Shown one piece after another: positions 8,525-63,700 of a DNA stretch of 64,000 nucleotides; positions within the stretch are counted from its first letter, which is position 1, and each line of letters opens with the position of its first letter. Source of the stretch: Chiloscyllium plagiosum (lineage: Eukaryota); assembly GCF_004010195.1 (NCBI RefSeq), contig NC_057739.1, forward strand, positions 26,270,500-26,334,499, given 5' to 3'. The translations under genes and the position numbers were made by a program. The notes under the pieces are model-generated. The model worked only from the letters and a program-made list of their open reading frames with translations. It was not told the origin of the DNA and did no database searches.

Positions 8525-9710
8525 GGTGACAGAAACCTGCTGGGAATTGCTGGAAAAATGCAGAGGATCTGGAGCATTTGTGGAGGGAAATCAGAGTTAC
8601 AATGCAGCCTCTGAAATGTCCAACTTCTTCTTCGACTGAGGATTCCTCACTGTCGTGCTTGACAGGGCCCTTGGCTGCCACACTTCGGCCCTCATGCCCT
8701 CTCTTCCCTCCCACAACAGTGAGTGGGTCCCCATTGACCACACCTATCATTCCACCAGCATCCACATCCAGAGGATCATTAGCTGTCATTTCCGCCACTT
8801 CCAGCAGGATGGCACCACCAGCACATTCCCCTCCCCCCACCTCCCCTGTCAGCCTTCTGCAGGGACCATTCCCTCTGGGACACCTTGGTCCATTCCCAAC
8901 ACTTCCCCATATCCCCACGGTACTTTTCTGTGCAATGCCCATTTACATTCTCCCTCCTCAGCATCCAAGGTCCAGGTGAAGCAGTGATCCACCTGTCCCA
9001 CTGTATTCACTGCTCACAAAATGGTCTTCTCTACATTGGGGAGACAAAGTACAGACTGGGCAGCTGTTTTGCAGAACACTTATGTTTTGTCCACAAAAAT
9101 GATCCTGAGCTTCCAGTTGCATGCCACTTCAACACCCCACCCTGTTCCCTGGCCAACATCTCTGTCTCGGGCTTGCTGCAGTGCTCCAGCAAAGTTCAAA
9201 GCAAGCTGGAAGAACTGCATCTCATTCTTCTATTTGGGGACTCTGCAGCCTTCAGGACTCTGTATTAAGTTTAACAATCTTGGGGCTTGAGCACCTTTTC
9301 CCATATCCTTCCACGACCTCCCCCACACCAATCCCCACACACCAGGCCTTCTCACAATTACTCACAATAGCATCACATGGGATGCTATCACAACCGCCCA
9401 ATACAAATACAAAATGGCACTCATTAGAAGCTATTGATTCTCCCAGGCTGATTATTGCCTGTGTTTTGCCCGACTGTTGGGTCTGTCTCTCTGGGCTCCA
9501 TTTCCACCTATTGTTTACTCCCCCCTTCTGCTCCCCACTTTATCTTCAGCATATATACAAACCTTTTCTTAGCTATCTTCAGTTCTGAAGAAGGGTCATT
9601 GGACTTGAAATGGTAAGTCAGCTTTCTCTCCACAGATGCTCTCGACCTGCTGAGTTTCTCCAGCTATTTCTGTTCTTGTTTCAGATTTCCAGAATCCATC
9701 GTTCTTTGGC
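8525..9710 (+). mobile_element. Penelope-like element (GIY-YIG end) with inverted 5' copy of its terminal repeat
   Basis: ORF 8885-9268 CIHCSQNGLLYIGETKYRLGSCFAEHL..PVACHFN; 8525-8600 is an inverted, diverged copy of 9610-9700. Confidence 0.85.
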
Positions 9711-10845
9711 CATCTCGTGAAAAAAAACCCAATGATTTAAATATCTTGTCAGAAGTCTGGATGACATTTCTTTTTGGAGGTCTGTCTTCCGTTGTAGGCT
9801 GTTCAGCGTCATTAACCCATTGTGCTGTGTGAGGTACTATTTAACCTGGTCTTGCTCTGTATTCCAACGCATTTTCTGGAAGTGACTTACTGACTCACAA
9901 ATCTTTTTTAATAGGTGTTCCCCACTTGTGCTTGTGAGATTTTCATGCTCCACATATTGTACCGGTGATTGCTCGGGTTGAGTATGATTGTCCTCCATAA
10001 GGGACGCCTACCTGTGGGCCTTTAGATGGCGAAGAGGCCAGTTCTGGGATCCACAGTTTCTATTGCAGTGTGGGTATTGCTGGATGATAATGGAGGTTGG
10101 AAATGATGGTGGGTGGGCCTTCTTGACGCTCTGTCTCTCCTTGCGCAAGAGTCAGTGGCACAGTGGAGAGAGTTTTGGTAGTGTATCGTTCCCTGCTGGA
10201 TGATGTCTCTCCAGTGATTCCGGTTTGTGGCCATGATCTTGCAGTTTTTGATGCTGAGATGAAATTTTTTGAGGTTGGTCCAGATGTTATCTTTGAAGCA
10301 TTTCTTTTGGCCCCTGGAGCACGCTGGCCTTCCTTCAGCTGGGAGTACATGATCTGTTTTGGGAGGCATGTGTTGGGCATTCAGATAACATGACTGGTCC
10401 ATCAGAGTTGCTGGTGAATTATGGTGGTGATGCTGGCTCTGCTGGCCTCCTCTCTGACGCTGGTTTTAGTGCACTTGTCTTTCCAGGTGGTTCACAGGAA
10501 TGTTTGGAGAGATCTCTAGCGTTGTTCCAGTGTTGTAAGGCACCAACTGTAGGAGGTCCACGTTTCAGCTCCATATAGCAGTGTGGGAAGGATAGTGAAT
10601 TTAGTTTGAGCCTAGGTCATGGTCTTCAAACACCATTCTTCTGAGTCAGGCATGGGCTCCACTAGCATTGGTGTTGCATTTCTGCAGTGAAGTTGGCCAT
10701 GGAGGAGAGAAGGCTGCCATGTTATGGGAAGTAGCCCATGTTTTCAAGGGGATGGTTGTTGACCCATATTGTAGGAGGCAAGGAGGATTATTGGGTGGAG
10801 GTTGATGGAGTACGAGAGTCTTTTTTTATATATTAAGGGTATGGC

Positions 10846-11032
10846 AAGATGGGTGGCATGGTGGCTCAGTGGTTAACGCAGCTGCCTCACAGCACCAGGG
10901 ACCCAGGTTCAATTCCAGCCTCAAGCTACTGGGTGTGTGGAATTTGCACGTTCTCCCATGTCTGCATGGGTTTCCTCTGGGTGCTCTGGTTTCCTCCCAC
11001 AATTCACACTGTAGGCATTCTATGATTCTATG
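10846..11032 (+). mobile_element. HE1-type tRNA-derived SINE (internally deleted) inserted in the RTE
   Basis: A box ggtggctcagtggtt, B box ggttcaattcc, ctatgattctatga tail; flanking aagggta duplication (10835-10841 / 11033-11039). Confidence 0.85.
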
Positions 11033-11521
11033 AAGGGTAAGGCCTAGGAGCTTATATGCCTTCGCAAAGCCATCCAAGATACACTGCAGGTCTATGGCGG
11101 AGCGTGCTGCGATGGTGTTGTCAGCATATTGAAGCTCCGAGATGGAAGTAGTGGAGACCTTGCCCTTGGCCTTGAACCTATTAAGGTTGAGTAGCCTGCC
11201 GTCCACGGTAAATGATTTGTATTCCCGTGGGCCGGTTTTGGCCAGTGAGATGGAAGATGGCAGTAATGAAGATGATGAACAGAATGGTTATGATAATGCA
11301 GTCCTGCTTTACCCCGTCTCCACGGTGAAAGGCTCCGACTCCAACCCATGGTTGCTAAGCACTGTCTGAGACATGTCATCATGCAGCAGCCTTGGCAGCT
11401 GCCCGAGAGCCTGGTGGTTATGTTAAAAGGCCCTAGTTAGGTCGATGAAGGCCATGTAAAGCAATTGTTTCTGTGCGTGACATTTTTCCTACAGTTGATG
11501 TGCTGTAAAGAACATTCTTCT

Positions 11522-11748
11522 CCCCCTCCAACTCTATTTTGATTTAGTCCCTACCCTCCCCTTCACTGTTTTGATCACACAGCACTGCCCTTTGATGTGA
11601 AGGGCAGTGCTTGTCACTGGCCACTCGGGTGTTTTCCTATCTTCCTGGAGGTGGAAATTGAATAAAGATTCGTACACCTTGTGTCTCTCACTTTGTCTCA
11701 CACCTGCACACACACACCATGGGTGCTGGGGAAAAAAAAAACAAAAAG
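11522..11748 (+). mobile_element. poly(A)-tailed retroposed fragment (probable L1/Tx1-type 3' UTR) inserted in the RTE
   Basis: 15-bp TSD aaagaacattcttct (11507-11521 / 11749-11763), AATAAA at 11661, A-rich tail. Confidence 0.8.
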
Positions 11749-12514
11749 AAAGAACATTCTTCTGGATGGATGGAAGCCATTCTGCTTTTCAGGGAGTATT
11801 TCCTCAGATAATGGCAGCAGTCTATTGACAAGGACACATACAAGTACTTTGCCAGTGGTTGAAGGAGATGCCTCTGCAATTGCCACAGTCAGCCTTGCCA
11901 CTCTTCTTAAATATGGTGCCAATCTGATCATGCGTGAGCTCCGTGGGGAGTTTTTCTTTGAGCCATATCTTCAAGGGCAAAGCTTGCATGTGTTCATGGA
12001 ATTGTGGGCCACCCTCCTTTAGGATCTCTGCAGGAATCCCATCAGGCCCTGCATCCTGGTTGTTTCTTAGGCTCCTTATGGCATCTTGTACTTTCGTTAC
12101 ACTGGGAAACTCTCCCATATCATTTTGCTGGATCTCTGGAGAATTTGGTTGATGATTTCCAAGGTAACACTGGTAGTACAATTCAGGAGTTCTTGTAAAT
12201 GCTCTCTCCAGCAGGTGTTTATTGCCTCATTGTCCTTAAGCAGATTTTGTCCATCTTTAGAGCCTGGGGGTGGAGGGGGGTGTTTGAGCACAAGTAGCTT
12301 GGAACAAGTACTACCTTGGTGGTGCTGAAGACGTCTCTTGTGTCACCGGCATCTGCTGCTGCTGGATTTCCAAGGCCTTATCAGTCCAACAGTCAGTTTT
12401 GAGCTCCCTTACCCTTTTCAAGATGTCAGCCTTAGCTTTGGCATCAGCCCCATTGTCATTCTGCCAGTCACAGACGGCTGTCCTTTTCTTGGTGATGAGT
12501 TGTTCAATTTCCAT

Positions 12515-12716
12515 CAAGAGTGTGGTGTTGGAAAAGCACAGCAGGTCAAGCAGCATCTGAGGAGCAGGAGAATCGAATTTTCAGGCAAAAGCCCTTCCTC
12601 AGGATTTTGCCCAAAATGTTGATTCTGCTTCTCCTTGGATGCTGCCTGACCTGCTCTGTTTTTCCAGCACCACACGTTCGACTCTGATCTCTGGCATCTG
12701 CAGTCCTCATTTTTCC
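12515..12716. mobile_element. short Penelope-derived inverted-repeat insertion
   Basis: 14-bp TSD tgttcaatttccat (12501-12514 / 12717-12730); head-to-head arms of the Penelope terminal sequence. Confidence 0.85.
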
Positions 12717-13443
12717 TGTTCAATTTCCATGTCATTCTCCTCGAACCAGTCCATATTTTACTGAGAATGGTCAATTTAAGCAGACTCCAATATTTTCTTA
12801 GTTCCTCTGGGTATTTCCAGGGTAGGTTCCTTTTAGCAAGTGAGACCTGTAGTTGTTGAATAGTGACTGTGTAACCCAGACTCTCAATGTTGAATCTTGG
12901 CCAGGCCTGCTTCTTCTGACCTTTCTTCTTTCTCTGTAGTCTGATGGACATTGTGGAACAGATAAGGTGGTGATCAGTCTGGCTGATCATAGCCCTGGTG
13001 ACATTCACGTCCCAATGGTCCCTGGAGTGAACAATGACATAATCTATGAGATGCCGTTGTTTTGAGTGTGGGTGCCTCCAAGATGCTTTGAATTTGTTTA
13101 TCTGATGGAAGAGTGTGCCTGAGATTGTGAGATTGTACTCCGTGTATTTTGTGAGAAGGACTCCATTGGAGTTGTTGTTGCCAATACCTTCCCTTCCCTT
13201 CCCGTGGTGCCATTCCAAAGGATGTAGTCTCAACCAACCCTCGCATTGAAAGTCTCCAAGAAGAATTATCTTCCCCTCCTTGGGGAATTACTTGATTACA
13301 GAGTGTGTCAAGGTTGGCATAGAAAGCATCCTTTGCTTCCTCCTTGAAGTCAAGGGGCAAAAGTGATCACACTTGTGGCTATCTGGTTGTTGGTGAGCAT
13401 TAGGCGGCTTGTCACGAGTCAGTCGTTGATCCCCATGGGAGGT

Positions 13444-13689
13444 TCAATAGACAATAGACAATAGGTGCAGGAGTAGGCCATTCTGCCCTTCGAGCCAGCA
13501 CCACCATTCATTATGATCATGGTTGATCATCCTCAATGAGTATCCTGTTCCTGTCTTATCCCTATAATCCTTGATTCCACTATCCTTAAGAGCTCTATCC
13601 AACTCTTTCTTGAAAGTATCCAGAGACTTGGCCTCCACAGCCTTCTGGGGCAGAGCATTCCATACACCCACCACTCTCTGGGTGAAGAA
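13444..13689 (-). mobile_element. CR1 LINE 3' end inserted in the RTE
   Basis: ORF 13444-13674 VVGVWNALPQKAVEAKSLDTFKKELD; (caataga)n tail; short gaggt duplication on both sides. Confidence 0.88.
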
Positions 13690-14025
13690 GAGGTAACTGA
13701 TGAGTTAGTTCTGAATTGCTAATCCAACACCGTCAATTGTTGGCTCATGAGCAACCTGCCCTTTCCAGAAGAAGGTGTAACTACCTTTCACCTCCTTCAG
13801 TTGCCCTTCATCTGTAAGGTGGGTTTCCGAAAGAGCAGCGAGGTCAATTTGACATCTCTTCAGTTCTCTGGCTACAATCGCACTTCTCTCGAGTCAGTCA
13901 CTGTTAGCTGGGACCTTCAGGGTTCTTACATTCCAGGTTCCCCAGTTGATTATTCTTCATTTCTGACTGCATGTGGGCGATCCCTCTGGACGCGGTAACC
14001 CAGTCAGGGGTTTTGAGGCAGGCTA

Positions 14026-14355
14026 CATTGGGGAGACAGGCCGCCTACTTGCGGAACGTTTCAGAGAACACCTCTGGGACACCCGCACCAACCAACCCAA
14101 CCGCCCTGTGGCTGAACACTTTAACTCCCCCTCCCACTCTGCCAAGGACATGCAGACCATGGCAACACGACACCTGGAGGAAGAGCGCCTCATCTCATCT
14201 TCTGCCTAGGAACTCTCCAACCACAAGAGATGATTTATCTTAGCCTGCTTGGCACACCCTCCTCATTCCTGAAGAAGGGCTTATGTCCGAAACTTTGATT
14301 CCCCTGCTCCTTGGATGCTGCCTGACCTGCTGCGCTTTTTCAGCAACACATTTTT
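14026..14355 (+). mobile_element. Penelope-like element 3' fragment (GIY-YIG) inserted in the RTE 5' region
   Basis: YIGETGRLLAERFREHL..RPVAEHFNSPSHS; flanked by caggcta (14019-14025 / 14356-14362). Confidence 0.88.
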
Positions 14356-15008: not shown

Positions 15009-15011
15009 CAG

Positions 15012-15122
15012 AGGCTCCCTGCCTCATTCCTGATGAAGGGCTTTTTTCCGAAATGTTGATTTTCCTGCTCCTCGTGTGCTGCCTGACCTGTGGTGCTTTT
15101 CCAACACCACTCTAATCTTGAC
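15012..15122 (+). mobile_element. Penelope terminal-repeat fragment
   Basis: cctcattcctgatgaagggc..gctgcctgacctg..ttttccaacaccactctaatc, the same family as 43698-43840. Confidence 0.8.
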
Positions 15123-15316
15123 TGCTAATGTGTACTATTGTACTGTGGTATATCAATGCTGCTTATGTGTGCTGTTATACTGGAAGCCTTTCCTGCTCTT
15201 TTGCAGTCAAAATGGAGAATTCTCACCTTTTTTACAGGTAGAATAGAGGGTTCCTGCCAACTGTGAGCAGCTTTTTTGCTGTTTTTGTGGATGAATCCCA
15301 TTCATGCCTTAAAGAA

Positions 15317-15662: not shown

Positions 15663-15669
15663 TGACCAG

Positions 15670-18020: not shown

Positions 18021-18156
18021 AGCCCTTCCTGAAGAAGGGCTTATGCCCGAAACGTTGATTCTCCTGCTCCTTGGATGCTGCCTGACCTGCTGCGCTTTTC
18101 CAGCAACACATTTTTCAGTTCTGATCTCCAGCATCTGCAGTCCTCACTTTCTCCTC
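18021..18156 (+). mobile_element. short Penelope-derived insertion
   Basis: 15-bp TSD ctcaatgaatggata (18006-18020 / 18157-18171); Penelope terminal sequence with a small 5' inversion. Confidence 0.88.
18029..18056 (+). ncRNA. putative minimal type-I hammerhead ribozyme core in the Penelope terminal repeat
   Basis: CTGAAGA-a-GGGC-ttat-GCCC-GAAA-CG-TT: conserved core boxes, 4-bp stem II, palindromic ACGT stem III; stem I is only ~2 bp. Confidence 0.55.
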
Positions 18157-21988: not shown

Positions 21989-22418
21989 GCCACGTCATGA
22001 AGGGGGACCTTGGAAGCCAGAGTTGCAGACATTTAGCTCCGTTGGGACCTTAAAATCTGAGGCCACTGGAGGTGGGTTTGCCCCAAATGTTCCACCCCCA
22101 ATTACCACCCTGTAGAAGCTTGGCCATAGTTTTTTTTTGTCACTGGCTAGATACCCTGTTCACTTGTGAGGTTTGGCCTGTGTACCAAGGCAACAATTTC
22201 ACTCCCAGAGGAAAAGTGCCAGGATGTCAACTCAGTACATTAATCAAGTTTTTCCACCATAACCAAACATCAAGGAGTAAAATATTAAATCTCTTGGTTG
22301 ATATGTTATAGACGTTGTATAATCAAAATACTCAGAGATGTCATTACGCACCTCTGTAGCAGATGGGACTTTAAATCTTGGCCTCCTAGTGTAGAGGAAG
22401 GGAAACTACTACTGATAT

Positions 22419-22513
22419 AGTTAAAAATCACACAACACCAGCTTATAGTCCAATGGGTTTATTTGAAAGCACTAGCTTTCAGAGTGCTGCTCCTTCAGGT
22501 GGTTATGATATGT
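22419..22513 (-). mobile_element. terminal fragment of a second Penelope-like family
   Basis: gttaaaaatcacacaacaccag.ttatagtcca recurs at 63950-64000; flanking tactgatat duplication; reverse strand has a hammerhead-like remnant cac-ctga-aggagc..ctct-gaaagcta-gtg. Confidence 0.6.
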
Positions 22514-24523
22514 TACTGATATGTTATATTCTTATTGACGTGCCTCCATTCATCTTGTGAACTTGTCAAATAATTTAATTAAATTATTAAAGTGAATGCT
22601 TAATGTATGTACTCCTTCAAGAAAAAAATCAGATTAAAAATAAATTGAGATTAAAACAAAACTATTATCTGTATCGTTGAGTTATGTGACAAAAGGATGG
22701 CATTCATATTCAATGTATCCAAACCTTGCCCAGTATTATACCTTTCATCACAACTGTGGGAGTGTGGAGAGGTTGGGCTGTCGATGCACGATGTAAACAA
22801 TAAGGCAATATTTCAAACCTGGTCTTGTACTTTGTTGTCTGAAATGGCTGAGTAATTTTTGAGTCACAGAGATGATAACTGCACCTTTATCTTTTTAATG
22901 ATGTCTGACTGGGAGTTTGGAACAATGGGATGAATTCAGTATTTGTGAAGGTGGAACAGTGAAGTCTTCTATGACAATCATCCAATTCTGTGGCTGTGTT
23001 CATACCAGGCGAGGGCTTGGAAAGGGCTGGCATTCATGTTTTGAAATGCTGAACCCAATGTATGATTAAATTGATGCTATTTAGCAATATCATTTATCCT
23101 TGTTACCCGTAATCATTTTGAATTAACCCTCCTTCAACATCTTCAGCAGGATTTCAGTTGCATTTTCTAATATTTGTTTTTCCTTGTGCACAAATTAGTA
23201 TATATGGAACATGTTGTTCGCCACACTTCTCTACTTAGCTTTTACAAAATTGTCAGAAATTTGCCATTCATCATTGAAAGAATGTCAGCATTTCCTAATC
23301 TCCAGCCCCTTCCCCAGTGCTCCCCCAAACACACTGTCCCACACTCAGCCTCTTCCCCCATGTTGCCCCCATCTCCTTGAAAACAAAAGGGACGTTTTGG
23401 GCAACCGTATTGAATATGGAATAATTCATAATAAATGCTCCATTCCGATGTTTTCTTATTTATTTTCTGCTGGCTGTGCTGAAATTGCAGATTTTGTTTG
23501 CCAGGATATTGTTCTGCTGGTATTGGTTACTCTCAGAATCTCCGTCAGCTGCCAATAGTGTGAACTGACCAGTAAGTGTAGCAAGCGAAATTACTGTGGG
23601 GTGTCAGAATGGAGCTTCACAATCTCGCAGCTTTATGTGATATGACTCTATAGATTCTATAGCAGGAGCTGTCCTGCCATTGAGGTCAATGCTTACTCTT
23701 TTTTTTAGCAGGTTGGAAAAACTTCAAGATAAGATCATTAGCCTTAACGTCCTTTCAGTGCAGGCAATAAACGGGGTCCTGTCTTGTGCATCCAAGTCAG
23801 TTTCAGGTGATGGGGCTCTAGAAATCTGGTTCCATTGGAATAAAGGGGACCCAATTGCTAATTTAGGTGGTAACTGACTGTACCCTACATAGTGCAGCCT
23901 TTAGCCACATGGGATTGTTAAAGCCACTATCTTCTTAAGGGTTACTAGGGACGGGTAACAAACGCTGGTCCAGTCAGTGATGCTTATGTCCCACAAGTGA
24001 AGGAGAAATGACGCAACTAATATTGTTACATTTTATGGGAAGCTGGGTTAGAATTGGGGAGGGTGGGGGGAAGGAAAAATGGGAAGAGGCTTAAGTGGAC
24101 CATAAGCACCACATGGACTGGGTGTATTGAATAGCCTGTTCTATGCCATTTCTCCTACATAACTCGATACAAGTAAGTATGCACACAGAGTGATCCAGAC
24201 TGCCACTACTGTGGCATCCCCACATTTCATGATTATGACCCGACATCTTTCCTAGCGGGTAACTGCAGCCCACTTCGCTCTGACAAATCTGCTAATATGT
24301 TCTGACATTTCTCTCTTACACCCAACTTCCCTGGAACTTTGGATTCTCAAATTCCCGGGCAGCTGAGGCTGGGATGGCCACATCACTGGTCAGGAACCAA
24401 AATGTCAAAATATGCCGGAGGGAGTGGTGGAGGAGAGGCCATTACATCTTTGAAGGGAAAGTTAGATAAATACATGGAGTTGAGGATGCAGCAAGATGAT
24501 GGAAGAAAGCAGGATTAGAATCC

Positions 24524-25022
24524 AAGAGTCATCGAGATGTACAGCATGGAAACAGACCCTTCGGTCCAACCCGTCCATGCTGACCAGATATCCCAACCCA
24601 ATCTAGTTCCACCTGCCAGCACCTGGCCCATATCCCTCCTAATCCTTCATATTCATGAACCCATCCAGATGCCTTTTAAATGTTGCAATTCTACTAGCCT
24701 CTACTACTTCCTCCGGCAGCTCATTCCATACACGTACCACCTTCTGTGTGGAAAACATTGCCCCTTAGGTCTCTTTTATATCTTTCCCCTCTCACCCTAA
24801 ACCTATGCCCTCTAGGTCTGCACTCCCGCACCCCAGGGAAAAGACTTTGTCTATTTACCCTATCCATGCCCCTCATGATTTTATAAATCTCTATAAGGTC
24901 ACCCCTCAGCCTCTGATGCTCCAGGGAAAACAGCCCCAGCCTATTCAACCTCTTCCTTTAGCTCAAATCCTCCGATGCTGGCAACATCCTTGTAAATCTT
25001 TTCTGAACCCTTTCAAGTTTTC
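24524..25022 (-). mobile_element. CR1/HER1 LINE 3' fragment (young), inside an older + strand CR1 tail
   Basis: ORF 24721-24948 NRLGLFSLEHQRLRGDLIEIYKIMRG; older CR1 remnants at ~24410-24520 and ~25030-25070. Confidence 0.93.
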
Positions 25023-28000
25023 CAAACTAACCCCTGCCGGACTGAATGGTCCATCGCTTGTTCTAAATTGCTGACTTCAAGCTGATATTTTCCTGCAACA
25101 GTCATTAGACACTGGTCAAGTGTATAGGCTGAAGACTCTTCTCCATCCCACCCACCCACCCAATGAAGGGCAATGCTCTGCCAACTTGCTGTCCTGTATA
25201 AAACACTGTATGCCTAGAGGTAAAGCCTTCTCCATCATGTCTGTTTAAAACCACTATCAGTCAGAAAGTACATTTATTGAGGAAGCTGAGCCACTACTCT
25301 CTGACTAGTTATCAGCCTTGGTTTGTTTGAGGGCGACTGGGGATGGCAGTGATGGGTACATCTGATGAGAACTTAATCCCACCTCCTAGAAGGAGAACAT
25401 TGGAAGTGTGTCCACTTTGAAATGGAAGGCTTATTTTATTGTTGTTATGCTTACTTCATGTCTGGAAAAACTTTTACCCTGTGGACTTATCCATTCATGG
25501 AATAAATATTCACCAACCAGTTCACTACTGCTATTCTATAGTGTCCTGCCTGAAATGACCAGACTGGAAATACAGCAGCGTGATCTGATGTGTTTCGTAA
25601 ACTGTGGGAACCATTTTGGAAGGTTGAACAAATTGCTATTCCACATCAAGCAGTGCCAACGAATGCCTCCAGCTCCAGATGGCAACCCTGCTCCCAACAC
25701 ATTATCCCAACAAATTATCTTCATTTCATCCATTTCATTTGTGCCAGAGAATGGTTTACTTTCCTTCAACTCTTCCATTTTGGTGTCTTTGAGGAAACAT
25801 TAACATCTGTAGAATGTGCTAATACATTTGAAGGCAGTTTTGTAGCAGGAGCCTGTTGCAAGTGACACGATTCTGCTTCAGGGTTTCAGAATGCATTTGG
25901 ACATTGCTACAGTTAATAACCAGAGTCATTCATCACCCTGCTCCCTTTAGAGGCACAGTCTAAGGGGACTGTTGCCCTTCCATTTGAGTGCATCTGTCCA
26001 GGTAAAAGGGCAGCGATCTGTTACAAACGTCAGCAAAGCCATCTGAAATCAGGGCACACATTGCTATTGTGGTCAATCTGACTGTGAGTTACTTATTCCT
26101 TTTTGAACTGGTTGTAAACCTAAAATAAATTGATAACGAATAACACTAAACACACAAAGGAGAGGGGAAGGTATAATAGTGAAAAGTAATACCCACTCAT
26201 CACATCAATTCCAGAATTTATTTTTTATTAATTGTAGAATATCGAGAACATTGAAATATTAATGGTTCCTTCATGATATTCTTTCACTTGTGTGAACGAC
26301 ATGACACCTGTGGTCTTTGTAAGTTAAGGACCTTTGCACTCTTTATATAATTACATTTAATGGTTTGTAATTTACAATGGTTTGTGCAAATTGGTTGGGT
26401 GACATGTAGTGTTTTCAGTCAAAATCTTGGCACATTACTGGATGTCTAAATTATCCTTAAAAGTGCCACTGAAACTGTTATGCTGGGTGACATGAGCTGT
26501 GTTAATTGCTTCAGGTTTTGTCTGCTTGTAAAATAATCTGTGATGGAGCAGACTGCTCTTGACTGTATGAATAAATATTTACTGCTTTAAGAAGCGTGGG
26601 CATCGTGCCAGTAACTGGAGATGGGTGAATTTTAATTGTAACTTTTTGCAGTCATGTACTGCCAGCCACCCTTGGGCATACTGTTCAAAGTTGCTTTTAT
26701 TAATATTTATACTTTATATTCATGTTGTTGCCTCAAGCTGTTGAGCTCTACTTCAGTGGGACACAGTTATTAGGTGATGGATCAAATACAGAGGAAGACA
26801 ATATGTTTGTCTTTGAAATAGTGTTTCTCAAAATTGAAGCGAGAAAAGCAGACTAGACAAAAATGACAATTGTAATAGGGTTCAGCCATCGAGCAACTGT
26901 AAAAGCTTTCACAAAATTACTAACATTTAGCCAGTTATGAATGTGCTTTTCTTTTTCATATTGTTTTCTTATGACTATTTTGGTGGATTTTTAAAAAATA
27001 ATTTACATTTCTAATATGTTTTTCTACATTGGATGGAAAGCAAAATGAGCTTTAGCTGCCTGGGCTAAACTAGTTAGGACAGTGAACACTTGTATGGATC
27101 TGTACTATTCAAGGAGGTCTTTTGTTCAAATTTAAAATGGGTTTCTAGCAGTGGAGTAAGTAACAACTGTTTTTACAATGCAACATTGTGAGTTGGCAGT
27201 TCTTTTTGTTAACCTGAAGCCTGACACTTGTACACCTGTAGATGTAGGTCGTGCTGTTGTATGTTACAATAGCACTCCTTCATGTAAGCTAGTCCATGAG
27301 TGAACCTCCAAGCATTTTTTCAATAATGCAAATCGCTGTTTTATATTATTGAATAAAGCAAATGAAATGGCGCTTTGGAGAGTTTGATATAAATAGCAAA
27401 CCGTGCAAAGACATCGCAGTGACATATGAGGAACATAAGAAATAGGAGCAGGAGTCAGCCCTTTGGAACTGCTCTGTCATTCAGTATGATTGTGGGGACC
27501 AACATTGACACCTCCAATTGAGGAAATGTACTCCTCCCTCTCTGTTGATGTACAGTAACTAAATATTTACAGTCAACCCCCCACCCGGGTTGTGAACATG
27601 TTCCAATCTTGAGTCCATTTGCAAGTCGATTTGTACACATCAATGCAGGACAATATAAAGCAACCATTCATAAATACAGAAAATGTTTATCTGTCAGGTA
27701 TTTAAAATTCATCCTTGTATGAGATTGCATTCATAAATTGGATGTTTGTATTCAGGGACCCCCTCTATTTGTGAACGTTGCGGATTGCCAGAATTATCCT
27801 GTTTTTATTTCATTTTTGAGTTCCCTCTTACGCTGTAAGAGTCACAAAAGGGAAAAAACCAAGGTCCCTGTTCCAGAGACTGATCTTATTTACAAGCTCC
27901 TTTTTGTTTACATCAGTGAGACATTCCACCAGCCCCAACTCCCCCACTGCTCAAAAAAATCCTTTTATGTATTATGTTCTTTGAATGGGAAAACATTATG

Positions 28001-32672: not shown

Positions 32673-32751
32673 AAACCCATGCCATTTGGAGCCTGGGAAG
32701 GTTCTGTCCAGTATTTGTATTTTGCTTTTATATATTTTGCTGGATATTATA

Positions 32752-37757: not shown

Positions 37758-38940
37758 AGGTAAAAACAATGACTGCAGATGCTGAAAACCAGATTTTGGA
37801 TTAGTGGTGCTGGAAGAGCACAGCAGTTCAGGCAGCATCCGAGGAGCAGCAAAATCGATGTTTCGAGATTTACCTGGACCATCTCTGACACCTCCCTCCC
37901 CTTCCTAGACCTCTCCATCTCCATTAATGACGACCGACTTGACACTGACATTTTTTACAAACCCACCGACTCCCACAGCTACCTGGATTACACCTCTTCC
38001 CACCCTACCTCTTGCAAAAATGCCATCCCGTATTCCCAATTCCCCCGCCTCCGCCGTATCTGCTCCCAGGAGGACCAGTTCCACCACAGAACACACCAGA
38101 TGGCCACCTTCTCTAGAGACCGCAATTTCCCTTCCCACGTGGTTAAAGATGCCCTCCAAAGCATCTCATCAACATCCGCACCTCCGGCCTCAGACCCCAC
38201 CCCTCCAACTGTAACAAGGACAGAACGCCCCNNNNNNNNNNNNNNNNNNNNNNNNNNNNNNNNNNNNNNNNNNNNNNNNNNNNNNNNNNNNNNNNNNNNN
38301 NNNNNNNNNNNNNNNNNNNNNNNNNNNNNNNNNNNNNNNNNNNNNNNNNNNNNNNNNNNNNNNNNNNNNNNNNNNNNNNNNNNNNNNNNNNNNNNNNNNN
38401 NNNNNNNNNNNNNNNNNNNNNNNNNNNNNNNNNNNNNNNNNNNNNNNNNNNNNNNNNNNNNNNNNNNNNNNNNNNNNNNNNNNNNNNNNNNNNNNNNNNN
38501 NNNNNNNNNNNNNNNNNNNNNNNNNNNNNNNNNNNNNNNNNNNNNNNNNNNNNNNNNNNNNNNNNNNNNNNNNNNNNNNNNNNNNNNNNNNNNNNNNNNN
38601 NNNNNNNNNNNNNNNNNNNNNNNNNNNNNNNNNNNNNNNNNNNNNNNNNNNNNNNNNNNNNNNNNNNNNNNNNNNNNNNNNNNNNNNNNNNNNNNNNNNN
38701 NNNNNNNNNNNNNNNNNNNNNNNNNNNNNNNNNNNNNNNNNNNNNNNNNNNNNNNNNNNNNNNNNNNNNNNNNNNNNNNTACTTTCTCCCCACCCCCACC
38801 CTCCTCTAGCTTATCTCTCCACGCTTCAGGCTCTCTGCCTTTATTCCCGATGAAGGGCTTTTGCCCGAAACGTCGATTTTGCTGCTGCTCAAATACTACC
38901 TGAACTGCTGTGCTCTTCCAGCACCACTAATCCAAAACAA
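37758..38940 (+). mobile_element. Penelope-like element (RT C-terminal part) with inverted 5' terminal repeat, spanning the gap
   Basis: SLPFLDLSI..DIFYKPTDSHSYLDYTSSHP..KNAIPYSQF.RLRRICS; 37758-37865 is inverted relative to 38865-38935; TSD aagcaaaagac(g/a)tct at 37743-37757 / 38941-38955. Confidence 0.92.
38232..38780. other. assembly gap (N run)
   Basis: Run of n characters. Confidence 1.
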
Positions 38941-41622: not shown

Positions 41623-41757
41623 TTTCAGCGCTGGATCAGTGATTTCAGTATTGAATCAGTGATTTCAGTGCTGGATCAGTGATTTCAGTGCTGGATCAGT
41701 GATTTCAGAGCTGGATCAGTGATTTCAGAGCTGGATCAGTGATTTCAGTGCTGGATC
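41623..41757. repeat. 20-bp minisatellite (~6.7 copies)
   Basis: Unit tttcag(t/a)gctggatcagtga repeated head-to-tail without spacers. Confidence 0.95.
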
Positions 41758-41872
41758 CGAACTTAAGAATTGCAAGCTGAGAATTGTTTGCATGATCAGG
41801 AGAATTCAGATTTATTTCGATGTGGTTGGTATCTTTTTATGTTCTTGTTTAGTCAATGGGAAAGATAAAGGA

Positions 41873-42775: not shown

Positions 42776-43697
42776 GCTGGTACTCAAATGGCTGAAGGGG
42801 AACCTAGATCCACAACCTCTGACTCAAGCGAAGGATGCCAAAGGCAGATAATCAGAGTAGCCTATTGTCTTAATTGGAAAAGATTTTTAAAAATTTCAAG
42901 TACAAAGATGTCTGAGAGAGAGGTCTTCCACAGTGCTGCCTACCTCATACCTATATATCCTGCCAGTCACTACGCAGATCATGTTTAACAAAGTTGAAGC
43001 AAAAAAGTCCTCCTATTTTTTTTTGGAGGATGCACATTTAGAGAAACAGAAAAGGGAGAAAATTAACAACAACATATAATCTTGAGAAAATTATGTTTTG
43101 GGTTCCTGAATAATATGTTTGGTTTTACATTCAATTTTGCTGTTTCTTAAAGGGAGTTTAACCACAAACTCTATTTTTTTCTGCAGTGATTGTAATGAGC
43201 CAGCTGAATTTCATAGAGTATGAGTTCCCTGATTGTGGAAGTTAATCCAGTCCAATCAGGGAGCCGTGACTGACATAAAAGAGAGCAGCAGAGATGCTGA
43301 CACTGTAATACCTGACTCTGTATGAAGCAGTACTATCATGAAGGACCGTAGACGTGTAAATAAAGGATGACATGATACTGGTCTCTGGAATTATTTCACT
43401 CTCAGTATCAAATTTTAATATAAGATAAAATGAGGGTATGGGGCTCAGTGTTTTTGGATATAGTCTCTCAATCTGGCACCTTATCTTTTTAAAATCATTG
43501 TAGGCCACACCCCTTAATTGGGTCATTTTGCTGCCTACATTTAGACAACTGGCTCTGTGCTTTCACAGAAAAAAGGAAGGATTGATCAACACAGAAGAGA
43601 AATTCCACCTGTTGATGATTTTAATACAAAGTTAAAATCAGCAATATTTTAAAAAAAGGTCAGCAATACATAAGACTATTTATGGTGCAGTAGTAGG

Positions 43698-43840
43698 CTC
43701 ACTGCCTTTATTCCTGATGAAGGGCTTTTTCCCGAAACGTCTATTTCGCTGCTCCTTGGATGCTGCCTGAACTGCTGTGCTCGTCCAGCACCACTAATCC
43801 AGAATCTGGTTTCCAGCATCTGCAGTCATTGTTTTTACCT
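43698..43840 (+). mobile_element. short Penelope-derived insertion inside a short tRNA-like SINE
   Basis: Same sequence as 38830-38935 plus the terminus ccagcatctgcagtcattgtttttacct; hammerhead-like core CTGATGA..GAAACGTC at 43714-43741. Confidence 0.85.
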
Positions 43841-44777
43841 CCCTATCTCTCAGCCAAGAGGCCTGGGCTCAAAAAATAACTGCTGCTGAGGTATGTCATG
43901 TCTGAACAGGTTGGTATAAAAATATAATGTCAGTAATACATGGATCGTCCCCTATTGTGTCTGTGATAACTTTCTTAGCAACATTACTAGAAGGAAGAAG
44001 CACACACCCAGAAATTCCTTCCATTCCAGCCAGTGAGAGGTGACCCATATTGTCTATTCAGAACCCAGATTCAGTTTCAGGCAGAATTTCATGTATTTAT
44101 GCAATCGCGTCATCCAGCTGTACAAAAGAACATTAGTACTTGACAAATCAAATAAACTAATAAATTCACCCTGTGTTTAAACCCTACACTGCCACTTCCT
44201 TTTCAGTCATTATAGTTAATTACCACTTCATTGGGAGAATTAAAATCAGCCCAGCAATTTTTTTTCATTGAACATGCTCAGCATCAGTTCTGATCTCGCA
44301 CTGTGTTTGAGGCACCTCTGTACATCTGCGCAAGCATGTCCATAATTTCTAATTACATTGTTGTTAAATATAATGAGCAGCTAACCTCAGACATCTGCTG
44401 TTGCAGTATGATTGAACAAACTGATTAACGTACTTTAGTGGCTGTACATAAAACAAATGAGAGCTTAATGGAAAAGAAAAATAGAAACTGTTCACAGTTC
44501 TTAAATGGCAAAAATATTGTGTTTTTCTATGATTGTTGCATGTTAGTGAATAGTAATCCTCATTCCAATCTCTGGTTAGTATTCCACAGTGTAAGAAGGT
44601 GCTCAAAACCACATAACAAATTAGATTGAACATGATCCTTTTGTAACACTTCAAGTATTCAATTGATTGTAAATTCTAAACTTAAATGGATGCATTCATT
44701 GAGCCTGCATTTCTCCACAATGAATATCATGCAAACAAAGGCAATTTATCTTCTATCAACACATTTTCATTTATAGA

Positions 44778-45180
44778 AGCATAGAGTAATACAGCATGGA
44801 AACAGACCTTTTGGGCAAACTCGTCCTTGCTGATTAATGTAGTCCCATTTGCTAGTATTTGGCTTATATATCCCTCTTCAACCCTTCCTAGTCATGTACC
44901 CATTCAGATGCCTTTTAAATGTTGTAACTGCACTCAACCAGTTCCTCTGGCAGTTCATTCCATACACACACCATCTTCTGCATGAAAAAATTATCCCTTA
45001 GGTCCCTTTTAAAACTTTCCGCTCTCACCCTAAACCTATGCCCTCTAGTTTTGGACTCCCCTACCATGGGGAAAAAAGGACCTTGTCAATTTACTCTTTC
45101 CTTGCTCCGCATGATTTTATAAACCTCCACAAGGTCACTCCTCAACCTCGGACACTCTAGGGAAAATAGCCCCAGCGTAT
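44778..45180 (-). mobile_element. CR1/HER1 LINE 3' fragment
   Basis: Closely similar to 1170-1655 and 24524-25022. Confidence 0.9.
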
Positions 45181-46270: not shown

Positions 46271-48732
46271 TGAATTCAACACAGAAGAGATAATTTGAAG
46301 ATTTTAGTACCAGTTTATGTTTGTTTCCTTCTTGACAATTTCCCAAGAGAGAAATTGACAAACTGGGCATTCAGTCAAAAATTGAGGGGAAAGACAGCTG
46401 AGGTCAATTGATTACCAAGATTAGATTTCATTTTATGATCTCTGGCTAAAAGTCCAACGCTCTTTATTTTAATCACTGTTTTGATTATGATTGATCAAGT
46501 TGTTAAAACCAGTGAATGCTGCATGATTTCTTTAATGATTACAAAAACATAAAGAGAATCTGCAATTAGACTTGAGGACAGCTAACAACACTGGAGGGGT
46601 GTTGCCAATTATTGACCACCTTCTAACTGTGACCAGTCCAATTGTCTCATTCCTCACCTATCTGTGTGATCTAGTTAAAGGACTTATTCTATAAAACTAA
46701 CAAGCAGAACACTGTTCTTTTTCTCATTAATTCATTAATGGTATCTTTATCACACAGGTATCCGTAGACATTGAAAGCCACCTAAATAGGACTAAGCCAA
46801 TAGGCAATGTGCAGTTTAATGATTTATTGAGGAGGAATTGATGCTAATTGTATTACACAGGCAGAGAAAGATATTGTTTAAGTCGACTGCGATGTAAGGA
46901 GCCATGTCCATGGCATTTATCCTGATTGGACATAATGCATTTATGGTCATATTTGCCTTCATTGCTTTATGACTCATTAATAGCCAGTGGTGCACTCCGT
47001 TTCTAAAATGTACAGAATACAAAAGAAAAATACATAGCCATGCAACAACATAATGAAACCTAACATCATTAATGTTAAATAGAAACAGGATATTTAAATC
47101 ACATGGTTGTATATTTCAAGTTCAGGTTTTTATATTCATCAAGGAAAATGTCAAATATAATTTGTTAATGAGACCTCAAAAAGGTTGTTTGCCAATGGTT
47201 TTATCGTAATGTTAAAATGATTTATTTCTGCTTGAATGAAGTATTGGTGTAGTTATGTTTTAAGTTCTAACATTGTACATTTCGAAAAAAAATTATCAAA
47301 ATACACTCTGAATTAACTTACAGAGCTTGGGGATTATAGGTTCTGTCAATAATTGACATCAGCAAACTTTCTTTAGCATTTTGAAACTTAGGGCTTTAAA
47401 TATATTTATTAAAAATTGCATTAATGTGATGCCTGCCTTTGTAAAATTAGTATTATTGGTTTGTTTCCCCACAGGATTCTAATCAGAAAAATAAAATTTT
47501 ACAGTTGGTGCAGAATAGATTCACAAAATGGCAGGATACTTCCTTGCCAAATCATTCTATTATCAGGGAATAATAAGAAGAAAGGTAATAATTTATTGTT
47601 ACATGTGTTTATGAAAATAAAGTAAAATGTAAATAAGTCAGCAAAAGCTGGTGCCATTTTAATTATATAAAGAAATAAATCTTCCAAAGTTTGAATTTTT
47701 TTTGTTTCATACAAGGCTTCTTATTTTCCGAAGTGACTGCGGGATGTCACCAAACTAGTTGGTGAGCCCGCAACACCAAGGAGGAAGCATGCAGAGGCAG
47801 CTCCCGCTGCTACTGACCGGACCCAGAACACCACCTCATGGCTGCCAGCCACCCATTCAGCCACCGCCATAGCCAAGAGGCTGTCCCAACTTTCGAGGAC
47901 CAGGGCCCCATCTGCATTTCTGAGGGCTGATGGACCATTTAAATTAACTCCCAAAGACGGGGGAATCATTCACTCAAAGGATCATTCACTCTGCACATGC
48001 CACCAAAACATCAGAGGGAAAGAACTGACGCCAATCTGTTGACGCTGGCACAGCTGCTGAAGCTGTGACCTCCATGGCCACAAGGACTGGATCCACTGCT
48101 CAGCAGTTGCCCACCACCTCTGCCACAGAAAGAAGCAAAAATGAATTTGAAAAAAAAAAGAAAATGAAAAGTTAAATGAAGGAAAGTAAGTTTTAAAGAA
48201 AAAGCATGTGCCTTGAATAGGAGTATAGCAGTAAGATTAAGAACTGCTAGCCTTTCTTTTGATTTTAAAGAAAATTTTTTTATTCAGCCTGAAAATAACT
48301 TGATAAAATCCCTTCAACCAAGGTACCAAGGCACACTTTACCAAGACAGTTTCTATTGCTTTGTCTCATAAACTAGTTACGGCAAAGCACCTTCAAATCT
48401 GCTAAAAATGATTTAAAGGCCTTTCGATTTTATTATTTGTATTCCTGACAACATAAATTATACAGATCTGTTGTACACTTCTTTCTAAAAGCAATGACTA
48501 ATATAAGAAAAATGTTTGCAAAATAACCATTCTTGAGTATGTGATAGTACTTGTATCTTGAAAGTACACAGTCTGCAGTGGTGTATAGCCAAAATATGCC
48601 ATCTTGCTCCCATGCTAACATGACTATCCTAGGCCTGCTATGTGTTCCAATGCAGCTCAACACAAGCTAAAGAAACAACACCTCATTTGTGCTAAGGCAC
48701 CTTACAGCTTCTAGGCACAGTATTGAGTTTGG

Positions 48733-48860
48733 AGGAAGTAAAGACTGTAGATGCTGGAGATCAGAGTCAAGAGTGTGGTGCTGGAAAAGCACAGCAGGTC
48801 AGGCAGCATCTGAGGAGCAGGAGAATCAACGTTTCGGGCATAAGCCCTTCATCAAGAATC
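48733..48860 (-). mobile_element. short Penelope-derived insertion
   Basis: Reverse complement of the 18021-18156 type; flanking ttgagttt duplication (48723-48730 / 48862-48869). Confidence 0.85.
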
Positions 48861-52816: not shown

Positions 52817-53400
52817 GAAATATTTGCATTTATATAGTGCCTTTTATGATGTCAGGAAATTTCAAAGCTCTTTGTAGACAATGAGGTACTTTGCAAAGTC
52901 TAATCACCATCATAGGAAATGTGACAGCCAATCTTATCATAGCAAGCAGCCAGAAACAGCAATGTTGTAATTGACTGGATAATTTGTCTTTGTGGTGTGG
53001 ATCTGACCAGGACATCAGGGATAACAATCTCTCTTCCTCCCTTCACCAGCATTACTCACAATATGCCATGACATCTTTTACATCCATCTCAGAGAACAAT
53101 CGAGTGTAATGTCTTATCGAAGTGAAGGCAAGTCCAATGGTGCAAGACTGAAACTTTATTGCTGGAACAGCACAGCAGGTCAGGCAGCTGCCTGACCTGC
53201 TGTGCTGTTCCAGCAATAAAGTTTCAGCTTTGATCTCCAGCGTCTGCAGACCTCACTTTCTCCTCAATGGTGCAAGACTCCTTCAGTAACAAAATTTGAA
53301 TATCAGTTTTGATTTAAGTTCTTGAGTTTTGAGGTGGATCTTAACCCCACAATTTTCTGACTTTGAAGCAAGAGTTCTCAGATCTGAATCATGGCTGACA
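52817..53400 (-). mobile_element. SacSINE1/DeuSINE-like SINE, full length, interrupted by a Penelope palindrome
   Basis: Tail ttgcatttatatagtgcctttt, Deu motif tgccatgacatcttttacatcca, head ..atggctgaca. Confidence 0.72.
53150..53264. mobile_element. short Penelope-derived insertion containing a perfect palindrome
   Basis: 15-bp TSD caatggtgcaagact (53135-53149 / 53265-53279); palindrome at 53148-53227. Confidence 0.9.
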
Positions 53401-55858: not shown

Positions 55859-57147
55859 GTGCAGTCCTGATGTTTTGATCAGAGATTGTGATGTTTCGCT
55901 TGACCTGTAGTCTTGTAGGAATTGCTTTGATTGGCTTTTGAGGAGAAATATTAAATCTCTTTACAACTTTTGGTACTTTTACTGAAGTACTTTGCATCAA
56001 TTTTCATGGTGGAAGATGCCAGCAGCATACCAGAACTTAAGAGAGTCAGGTGGCAGAGGTGAATGTAGTGGTCATCACGAAGGAGAATGTGCTGGGGAAG
56101 CTGAAAGGCCTGAAGGGGGATTAATCACCTGGACCAGATAGAATACACCGCAGAGTTCTGAAGGAGATAGCTGAGGATAAAGTAGAGGCATTGGTGGTGA
56201 CCTCTCAGGCATCACTGGAGTTAGGGAGGATCCCAGAAGATGGAAAATGGCGAATGTAACACCCCTGAAGGGAGGGAGGTGGTAAACAGAAAATTACAGA
56301 CTGGTTAGCCTGACCTTGGTCGTTGCTAAGATTTCAGAGTCCATTGTTAACAATAAGTTTGCAGAGTACTTGGAAGTGTATGGTAAAGTAGGGCTGAGTC
56401 AGCATAGCCTTGTCAAGGGGAGGTTTTGCCTGACAAACCTGTTAGAAGTGTTTGGGGTAACACGCAAGTTTGACAAAGGAGAGCCAGTGGACGTGATCAG
56501 TTTGAATTTCTAGAAAGCCTTTGGCAAGGTGCCACACAGAATACTGCGAAATAAAAGAGGAGCACATGTTATTAGAGGCAAGGTGCTGGTGTGGATAGAG
56601 GATTGGCTGACTGGTAGGAGGCAGAGAGTGGGAATAACGGGGTTTTTTTCAACATGGCAGCTGGTGATTCAAGAAGTTCCACAGAGGTCTGTGTTGGGAC
56701 CACACCTATTCAGGCTAAACATGAATGATCAGGATGAAGGAACTGAGGGCATCACTGCTGAGTTTGCGGATGACACAAAGATAGATGAAGGGACAGGTAG
56801 TGTTCAGAAGTTGAGAAGGCTGCAGAAGGCCTTGGACAGGCTAGGAGAGTGGGCAAAGAAGTGGCAGATGGAGTACAATGTGTGAAAATGTGATGTTATG
56901 CACTTAGATAGTAAGAATAGAGGCATGGATTATTTTCTAAATGGGGAAATCTGAAGACACTTAGGCATTCTAGTTCTCTTAAGGTTAATGTGCAGGTTCT
57001 GTTGGCAGTTAGGAAGGCAAATTCAATGTTAACATTCATTTTGAGAGGGCTAGATTACAAGAACAGAAATGTTCTTGTATAAGGCTCTGTATCATGGGCG
57101 GTTTTGGGTCCCGTATCTAAGGAAAGATGTGTTGGTGTTGGAGGGAG

Positions 57148-57285
57148 GCAAGACTAGAGTGGTGCTGGAAAAGCACAGCAGGTCAGGCAGCATCTGAGGA
57201 GCAGGAAGATCGACATTTCAGGCAGGAGCCCTTCATTGCTCTAATCTTGACTCTAATCTCTACCATCTGCAGTCCTCACTTTTGC
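57148..57285. mobile_element. short Penelope-derived inverted insertion in CR1
   Basis: 16-bp TSD ttgg(t/c)gttggagggag (57132-57147 / 57286-57301). Confidence 0.85.
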
Positions 57286-57446
57286 TTGGCGTTGGAGGGA
57301 GTCCAGAGGAGATTTCCAAGAATTATTTCAGGAATTAAGGGCTTGATATATGAGGAGCAGTTCAGGATTCGGGGGGATCATATTGAAATTTACAAAATAT
57401 TGAGAGGCTTGGATAGAGCAGATGTATAGATGATATATTCTTTTAA

Positions 57447-61500: not shown

Positions 61501-61896
61501 TGATATGCAAAGTAACTGGATTAAGATAATGCACAATGGATCCTGCTGTATAAAGACAGCTTGAGAAGTGCTGACAGAAACCTCTGTACCAGGCTGGTTC
61601 AAAGTCTGGCATTCATCATGTGATAGAAGGGAAGGACCTCATATATCAAAATGGAAGTCTTAAGTGTACAGGCATTAAGGGATTTAACTGCATCCCTGTG
61701 GATACTCAATCTAAGATGGTTGGAAGAGGCCACTTCCCATCAGCAAGGGAGTGCTGTATAATGGTGTAGGAGCTAAGCCTGGAATGTGGTTGATTAGGAT
61801 AATTTGAGAAGGCAAAGGATAATTAATGTGAAGTCTGGCAAATACCGTGTGATCATGGGATGCTCGAAAGCTGACCATGGTCTGATCGTGCAGTCA

Positions 61897-62607
61897 CATA
61901 GAATCATAGAGCTGCACAGCACGGAAACAGATCCTTTGGTCCAACTCGTCCATGCCAACCACATATCCTATATTAATCTAGTCCCATTTGCCAGCATTTG
62001 ACCTATATCCCTCCAAACCCTGCCGATTCATATATCCATCCAGGTGCCTTTTAAATGCTGTATTTTTACCAGCCTCTGAAATTTCCTCTGGCAGCTCATT
62101 CCATACACACACTACCCTGTGTGTGAAAAGGTTGCCCCTTAGGTTCCTTTTAATTCTTTTCCCTCTCATCCTAAACCTATGCCCTCTAGTTCCCCACCCC
62201 AGGGAAAAGACCTTGTCTGTTTATCCTATCCATGCCCCTCTGATTTTATAAACCTCTGTAAGGTCACCCCTCAGCCTCCAACACTCTAGGTACAACAGCC
62301 CCAGCCTGTTCAGCCTCTCCCTATGGCTCAAAAACCCTCCAACCCTGGCAATATCATGGTAAATCTTTTCTGAACCCTTTCAAGTTTCACAACATCCTTC
62401 TGATAGGAAGGAGACCAGAATTGCACGCAGTATTCCAAAAGTGGCCTTACCAATGTCCTGTACAGTTGCAACATGAGCCCCCAAATCCTATACTCGATGT
62501 TCTGACCAATAAACAAAAGCATACCAAACACCTGCTTCACTATCCTATCTACCTGCAACTCCACTTTCAAGGTACTATGAACCTGCACTCCAAGGTCTCT
62601 TTGTTCA
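61897..62607 (-). mobile_element. CR1/HER1 LINE 3' fragment
   Basis: ORFs 62328-62588 (LVRPLLEYCVQFWSPSY) and 61978-62169. Confidence 0.93.
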
Positions 62608-63446
62608 TGATTAAGCTGATTGATTCATCTGTGATCAATTCATAACACCATTGGTTTGTAACAGCCAAGGCACGCTAAAAGCAAATCTGTAACAAGTGTA
62701 TGTTTCCCCTTGTTCCCTTGTCTGCCCAAAGTTTTTGTCCCCACTGGTGTAAAACAATAAACTCTAGATTTTTGAAGTGGACTTGGGTGTCGAGTGATTA
62801 TTTAGTCATTCCACCCCGATATATATATATATAGGTTATTTAACTTCTAAACAGCTGTTGTGTGAAACATTGAGTTTACATCCTTTGAGTGAGTAGATTC
62901 TTGACTCATAGCCCTTCATGATTCAGTTGGGCCATAGAGCCAGGTTTGGCACACTGCATAATAGCTTGGCACATTTCTTGTTGCGTTCAAAGGAAAGGCA
63001 TATTAGAAATACCGGAATGTATGGGAAGAATACAACTGAAACATTATGGAGAGTGATTAAACAATGTGGCATTCGTTGTTAAAGTGCAGGACTTTGAGAG
63101 TTGTTATGTTTTGTTTTCTGCCTTTCATATATTGTACAATGTTAAGTGACAGATTATTTATGGTATGTGTGTTCATGGGTTTGCTACATCCATGCCTCTC
63201 CCTATGTTGACAACAGAAGATTTGTGGAGCTGAGGAAAGGCATTAACAGCTCATGTGTTTGAATTGAGCATGAGTCCTATCTAGCTGGGTGTGGTCTGAG
63301 TTTGAGTCTATACTGCGACTTCCGATATGGATATGGGCACTGAGTTAAAAACAACATCTGCAGCCTCGTAAAAATAAACAACAGTTACTCTGGCTCAGTA
63401 AGTACAGTGCGATATAGATCCTGACAATCCATGGCTCATTTATGAT

Positions 63447-63700
63447 ACAAAAACAGAAATTGCTGGAGAGGCTCAGCAGGTCTGGTAGCATCTGTGGGCA
63501 GAAAACAGAGCTAAAGTTTTACATCTGGTGGCTCTTCATCAGAACTGATGGCAGCTCAGAAAAAGTAGCATTTATGGTGAAGATGGGGTTTGGGAAGAGA
63601 TGTGTGGATAGCTGGAGATGGAGTGCAGAGAGAGAGAGAGAGAGAGGGAGATATGAAAGGGATAGGCAGACAAGGTATTGTTGACTGTAAGCAAGGTCAG
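63447..63700 (-). mobile_element. Penelope terminal-repeat fragment (same type as 9540-9710), including a (GA)n tract
   Basis: acaaaaacagaaattgctggagaggctcagcaggtctggtagcatctgtgg..ctcttcatcagaactg. Confidence 0.75.

Follow-up and report, generated by a model that had tools for sequence, protein, structure and literature searches.

Minimal type-I hammerhead motifs in Penelope-derived termini of Chiloscyllium plagiosum and the genomic footprints of their RNAs

A stretch of 64,000 nucleotides (nt) from Chiloscyllium plagiosum (contig NC_057739.1, positions 26,270,500 to 26,334,499; hereafter the window) carries repeated hammerhead-like motifs, which are minimal type-I hammerhead sequences in the end repeats (pseudo-long terminal repeats, pLTRs) of Penelope-like elements (PLEs), mostly preserved in dead retrocopies; in Neptune-type elements the ribozyme would probably have stood at the 5' end of an RNA that was mostly copied uncut and cut in a minority of cases. 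The identification of the motif is correct and of a known kind, minimal hammerheads having been described since 2014 (Cervera and De la Pena 2014, PMC4209133; published work is cited here from the sections available), and the motif itself is ordinary for its class. The value of the present analysis lies in the footprints left in the genome, namely templates in Neptune-type families that were likely uncut, the contrast offered by one Poseidon-type family (D), and fusions to U6 RNA at the predicted cut. In the published sections the role of the hammerhead in PLEs is called unclear (PMC8557442), and low activity in vitro is described for PLE hammerheads.

The motif, its families and its carriers

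All nine hammerhead-like sites listed by the original prediction, which was made from the window sequence, are present, seven exactly where it placed them and two shifted by at most 3 nt (for the minus-strand site at 63545, C3 of the core falls 3 nt within the start given, and for that at 22500 it falls 2 nt within). Only one of the nine, at 18029, retains an intact motif; the defects of the others are given in Table 1, and nearly every copy in the window is dead. At least five more terminus pieces occur in the window beyond these sites. A structural descriptor of the minimal hammerhead matched 120 times in 987,512 non-N bases, and not once when the sequence was reversed as a control; this 988-kb sample, which is not random, comprises 800 kb of C1 (three blocks), 200 kb of C30 beside the window (one block) and the window. 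Across the 3.56-Gb genome the exact family A core occurs 90,551 times (control 0) and a downstream 32-mer pattern 170,470 times. Given that both the descriptor and the core were absent from their controls, the motifs are not due to chance, and the dense seeding of the genome that had been proposed is borne out; the 90,551 cores compare with ~4,000 copies in the coelacanth and ~9,000 in Xenopus (PMC4209133), obtained by another method. An Rfam scan of the window returned no match to a hammerhead model at E up to 10; a motif that lacks the stem III loop is expected to escape it. Rfam matches to mir-15 and mir-2072 correspond to a PLE palindrome at 53152-53223 and were rejected as spurious.

The descriptor left positions 15.2/16.2, the extra nucleotide and stem I unconstrained. 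Among its 120 matches, positions 15.2/16.2 are CG in 70, GC in 14 and CA/TG, the products of CpG decay, in 29, which upholds a palindromic, loop-less stem III; the nucleotide between 9 and 10.1 is A in 107, U in 12 and G in 1; and stem I has at least 2 pairs in 92. The CUGANGA and GAAA boxes and a UH site occur in type-I order, the G10.1-C11.1 pair is kept in the A1-A3, B, C and D references, and stem I is very short, as had been claimed, with 2-4 base pairs (bp) in the family references. These properties are those of the PLE minimal hammerheads of PMC4209133: type I, no loop 3, palindromic 15.2-16.2, a short helix I, an extra nucleotide between 9 and 10.1, a G10.1-C11.1 pair, and mostly single dispersed copies. 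The extra nucleotide after A9 is therefore present as predicted, but it is a defining trait of this class (PMC4209133) rather than a tolerated oddity. Minimal hammerheads occur in Neptune and Poseidon elements of fishes (PMC4209133); that paper, whose supplements may hold chondrichthyan examples, names no cartilaginous fish in the available sections and describes neither end maps nor U6 joins there. A literature search for hammerheads and Penelope in sharks gave an unrelated mention only.

The descriptor matches were sorted into families A (A1-A3), B, B2, B3, C and D, consistent with the predicted minimum of three. Family majorities, selected on downstream sequence, cover A1-A3 and B (a B2 row was dropped as contaminated by B copies), while C and D are represented by references and match lists. 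By majority, stem I has 4 bp in A1 and in B, with differing pairs, and in A2 and A3 it has 2 bp followed by a U-U mismatch; the C and D references have 3-bp stems of different pairs, and their stems II also differ. Stems I and II and the stem III palindrome thus covary between families, and the covariation anticipated for stem II extends to both helices and the palindrome together. Within a family the picture differs: among 63 spanning family A copies, core changes affect 8 of 602 non-CpG cells versus 56 of 360 CpG cells, and 42 of 188 family A pieces still have an undamaged motif. The core is preserved along the lineages whereas single copies decay neutrally, so that covariation is to be sought between families and not among copies.

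The Penelope origin of the motifs is confirmed by frames for reverse transcriptase (RT) and GIY-YIG endonuclease beside the pLTR. Locus L202, a truncated element, shows RT motifs followed by a Cys-rich linker, a GIY-YIG domain (PF01541 above cut-off) and the pLTR; a 14-bp duplication flanks it and an inverted piece stands at its head; L206 likewise shows RT, a C-terminal GIY-YIG and then a pLTR. None of 20 long-frame candidates proved to be an intact full-length element or open reading frame (ORF), and the long frames of the full-length candidates were rejected as gap artefacts. The Cys-rich RT-endonuclease linker is present in A and in a B fragment and absent from D fragments (judged by eye, no tree). 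On such sequence features A, B and C are read as Neptune-type, with B like A and with C placed from one short fragment only, and D as Poseidon-type. In A3, 164 nt separate the core from the start codon downstream. In L262 the A3 tail ends, ~128 nt after the core and 36 nt before the start codon, in a pyrimidine run and AG resembling a splice acceptor; no joint matching this site, nor any splice joint in the 5' untranslated region, was seen in the RNA data. Several loci (L054:1090-1628, L263, L265, L268, L273, L275, L277) are internally deleted partial tandems in which the ORF start is joined to a pLTR; these are template jumps at differing points and not descendants of one master. Target duplications of 8-17 bp and inverted pieces accompany the copies.

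Where the copies begin and end

Positions are numbered from the core C3 as 0, which in family A puts the predicted cut between +27 and +28. Anchors placed 3' of the ribozyme in family A numbered 209, of which 188 scored above the limit and 21 were dropped. Their 3' ends lie at +81 to +98 in 81 of the 188 and at +120 to +131 in 89, two sites that match the two RT start sites and tail described for PAc, the Poseidon element of Anolis carolinensis (Frangieh et al. 2024, PMC11167929). The 5' ends lie between -9 and +11 in 99 of 188 copies, where ~7 are expected (58 at -9 to -1 and 41 at 0 to +11), with the mode at -4 (16 copies) and -3 (12), the start of stem I; near the cut, at +25 to +31, there are 6, one of them at +28. 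The same interval holds 35 of 79 ends in family C (mode -3) and 28 of 48 in family B (mode -5 to -2), from which 133 rows were removed as family A cross-matches and a few may remain. It had been expected that RNA-derived copies would start just 3' of the GUC/GUU site; most start instead at the beginning of stem I. Jumps from a pLTR onto the ORF of another RNA (L265, L275) also start at -4, and loose ends of aligned reads and contigs peak there in the four runs X7, X1, X2 and X9, whose reads likely represent passively transcribed genomic copies.

The 5' pile-up is most simply read as run-off where the RNA begins, close to the first bases of stem I; the short copies were likely made mostly from uncut RNA. 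T/A-rich boxes precede the core by 34-37 nt in A and B, 40 in C and 48 in D, and A and B have an initiator-like pyrimidine-A-pyrimidine run at -4. In Drosophila Penelope a promoter in the pLTR is established (PMC2377424). A pLTR promoter of this kind would start the Neptune-type transcript near -4, and RT would prime ~95-130 nt downstream and run off the 5' end of the RNA, giving stubs of 100-135 nt; as such stubs are little more than a hammerhead, the dense seeding would follow. Reverse transcription starting internally at two adjacent sites would give the tail, as in PAc, where uncut RNA is likewise the main template and both target strands are extended, which fits the inverted arms seen here (PMC11167929). 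The two systems differ in that PAc is a Poseidon element and families A-C are read as Neptune-type, and in that the PAc ORF begins at stem II (PMC11167929) and that of A3 164 nt past the core.

Several observations weigh against a start of the RNA at stem I. In family D only 1 of 27 copies begins between -9 and +11 and none pile up near -18 or at stem I, although a clear TATA box stands at about -48 in this family; in family C the TATA spacing predicts a start at ~-9, but the mode is -3. RNA reads on both strands, including those of X7, show no start or end peak, so that neither a transcription start nor cleavage is seen in them, and from RNA run X8 no reads aligned. The base before the -4 start, at -5, is G 7,596 times versus A 4,145 times; this excess was considered as a cap-derived G and is real, but in ~19-20 of 30 loci inspected by eye the G also stands in the target duplication or inverted arm, so that it is mostly templated and the evidence for a cap is weak. 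A literature search on 5'-end pile-ups in such elements found nothing in titles or abstract starts.

The pile-up might instead mark an RT stop or joining hotspot caused by a folded or protein-bound hammerhead within a longer RNA. The modes of A, B and C do track the boundary of stem I better than the TATA spacing of C, the 5' ends trail through the core to +11, and many joints share microhomology with the inverted arm. This explanation is nevertheless unlikely, as a structural block would be expected at the 3' side of the stems (+19 to +31), where only background is found, stem II of family D is longer yet no pile-up exists there, and the same ATT word recurs at +29 without a peak.

A reading of the short copies as a non-autonomous retrozyme or short interspersed element (SINE) family, spreading through hammerhead-cut circular RNA, is very improbable and has been largely refuted by the end maps. 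Non-LTR retrozymes are hammerhead-bearing, non-coding and derived from PLE pLTRs, and are reported from vertebrates including one chondrichthyan (bioRxiv 10.64898/2026.07.22.740005), and short tandem and internally deleted units do exist here (L024, L054, L265). Retrozymes are tandem units, however, whereas the present copies are single or head-to-head truncation products; no tandem non-coding units bounded by the cut were found, since the heterogeneous ends lie off the cut site. Moreover, the copies have PLE tails and inverted arms, share the sequence of ORF-linked pLTRs, and their 5' lengths grade without a break into the ORF. One locus (L024-L026, G000:C4:37091394-37091561) holds three A1 hammerheads in 170 bp, as a 99-nt direct tandem with an inverted arm, and is a candidate natural dimer.

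Cleavage and the U6 fusions

A search for U6 yielded 48 scored matches, 42 of which were covered by the 40 regions fetched. In five of these regions (L367, L383, L393, L395, L399) U6 and a Penelope terminus are joined at the predicted cut: four have family A termini, each of a different subfamily, joined exactly at +28, and L395, below the script score limit, has a family D terminus joined at its own cut on the inverted arm. The joints are without microhomology, none falls at the -4 hotspot, and in L383, L393 and L395 the joint is present on both arms; the last feature and the lack of microhomology indicate that the fusion most likely already existed in RNA. Against the background of 1 in 188 starts at +28, four of four U6 joins there give a Fisher p of ~1e-7. 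RtcB is known to join U6 with a cyclic phosphate to 5'-OH RNA (PMC6789731), and a 5'-OH is the end that a hammerhead leaves, which fits joins at the cut. The fusions resemble the U6/LINE-1 chimeric pseudogenes (Moldovan et al. 2019, PMC6789731), in which the U6 3' U-tract precedes a 5'-truncated retroelement and one RNA was copied; the LINE-1 joins vary and require an unknown nuclease, whereas all five here fall on the ribozyme's predicted bond. In PAc no reads mark the cut site (PMC11167929), in contrast to the U6 joins here. A literature search found no paper on U6 small nuclear RNA joined to Penelope hammerheads. The joins at the exact bond suggest, indirectly, that the hammerhead sometimes cut in vivo. 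Occasional cleavage would remove the first ~32 nt and leave a 5'-OH that could be ligated, for example to U6; the loop-less stem III would need two copies or protein help (PMC4209133, PMC11167929).

Against this must be set the small number of fusions (5), drawn from the 48 scored matches, and the fact that the predicted active two-strand core lies 1.6-6.5 kcal/mol above the cofold minimum in A1, A2, A3 and B. Nor do ordinary copies help: 564 start at +28, 319 at +29 and 316 at +27, but inspection of 20 loci starting at +28 showed 16 to be joins to an inverted arm or small deletions (one-base deletions account for 46 of the first 100 listed +27 starts), and the bump at +28 was discarded as a mark of cutting, being inseparable from microhomology. 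Nor is a perfect hairpin with the cut at its centre diagnostic, because annealing at the TCGA palindrome gives the same product.

It has also to be considered that the hammerheads no longer cut and persist for a promoter, protein-binding or structural role, the U6 joins arising by RT template switching or a cellular nuclease. Most templates were uncut, the A2 and A3 stem I is interrupted after 2 bp, insertion in vitro is independent of cleavage and anole reads never end at the cut (PMC11167929), and the Naiads are without hammerheads (PMC8557442). The reading is improbable all the same, for the five U6 joins all lie on the predicted bond, in two clades of different sequence and never at the commoner -4, and the catalytic boxes are kept while the stems covary. 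Occasional cleavage would remove the first ~32 nt and leave a 5'-OH that could be ligated, for example to U6; the loop-less stem III would need two copies or protein help (PMC4209133, PMC11167929).

There is about an even chance that the Neptune hammerhead is a 5'-terminal switch, with transcription starting on stem I, uncut RNA as the normal template leaving hundreds of thousands of strong-stop stubs, and germ-line cutting, recorded by U6 fusions at the exact bond in two clades, that removes the cap and leaves a ligatable 5'-OH. If so, the genome is a fossil record of the uncut and the cut state of the RNA, Poseidon differing in the first and not in the second. The end maps of many genomic copies place the probable start of the template RNA and show it as mostly uncut, the U6 fusions indicate that cleavage probably happens in vivo, and together they provide precise coordinates for direct tests.

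A recurrent loss of U16.1 was also encountered. Among one-base deletions across +20 to +28 it accounts for 44 of the first 100 listed in A2 (306 in all) and 19 of 63 in A3, with 1-5 deletions at each neighbouring single base (by eye), while the 208 deletions of a control window are spread over positions. There are 103 exact A2 copies with this deletion genome-wide (for example L336-L365), on several subfamily backgrounds and usually on one arm, L354 alone having it on both. Family C shows no excess (5 of 46), and a general ribozyme footprint was rejected on that ground, as was the idea that the deleted copies are all stubs (9 of 30 vs 7 of 23 at the -10 limit). The loss may come from an RT skip or from a DNA hotspot.

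Many other U6 copies (L372, L373, L381, L384, L386-L388, L390, L391 and others) abut the 5' start of a single shared repeat, by appearance possibly the head of a tRNA-derived SINE; L368 also looks tRNA-like.

Elements in the window

The elements carrying the nine sites, and further terminus pieces, are collected in Table 1.

Table 1. Penelope-derived features of the window (core states refer to the hammerhead motif)
Feature	Position	Strand	Remarks
Family A2 stub, core 18029-18056, starts at -3	18021-18156	+	core intact, C17 to U, GUU site, stem I of 2 bp; 8-nt inverted piece, 15-bp target duplication (18006 / 18157)
Family A3 pLTR piece, core 43714-43741, long tail	43695..43841	+	first stem I pair and one stem II pair broken
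5'-truncated Neptune-type PLE	37758..38937	+	37865-37758(-), inverted terminus missing from original prediction; 37872-38213, RT-thumb fragment; assembly gap; pLTR, its core 38847-38874 showing U4 to C; direct repeat of 11 nt at 37743 / 38941
Family A2 pLTR piece, core 14269-14296	14234..14354	+	stem III palindrome broken
Family A pLTR piece, core 15030-15057	15012..15123	+	stem III palindrome broken, stem II damaged
Family A stub from -4, core 48855-48828	48731..48859	-	C3 to U; two extra G at 5' joint; 8-bp target duplication
Head-to-head family A insertion	12501..12726	both	arms 12604-12516(-) from -2, near-complete motif, and 12602-12717(+) from +9; 10-bp target duplication; missing from original prediction
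Palindromic family A1 insertion	53135..53279	both	both arms from +48, without ribozyme; terminus piece 53149-53267; 15-bp target duplication; source of the spurious mir-15 match; missing from original prediction
Family A insertion	57137..57301	both	arm 57236-57147(-) from +3, with an inverted tail; target duplication of 11 bp; missing from original prediction
Old family B element end	8783..9720 (end approximate)	+	GIY-YIG-like fragment 8783-9268; core 9585-9614 with U16.1 replaced by G, preceded by a TATA-like box ~35 nt upstream
Decayed family B-like pLTR, core from 63542	63443..63645	-	G12 lost
Family C stub, AGCU palindrome, CAC/GUG stem I	22415..22507 (ends approximate)	-	starts at -9; deletion inside CUGANGA
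Family C tail at 63990, cut off by window end; missing from original prediction	63915..64000	-	

A Pfam search gave no match for the GIY-YIG-like fragment of the old family B element. In the minus-strand motif at 12602-12575 the palindrome AAUU replaces ACGU and is still self-complementary. The window further contains a tandem repeat of ~9 units of 20 bp (41603-41782), broken LINE-type RT frames of two other kinds, judged by eye (6824-8220 on the plus and 10022-13830 on the minus strand), CR1-like 3' ends (1170-1670, 3087-3530, 24520-25030, 32750-33430, 44775-45180 and 61900-62590), and a SINE-like repeat at 14830, 15320, 45280, 51280, 57555 and 60110.

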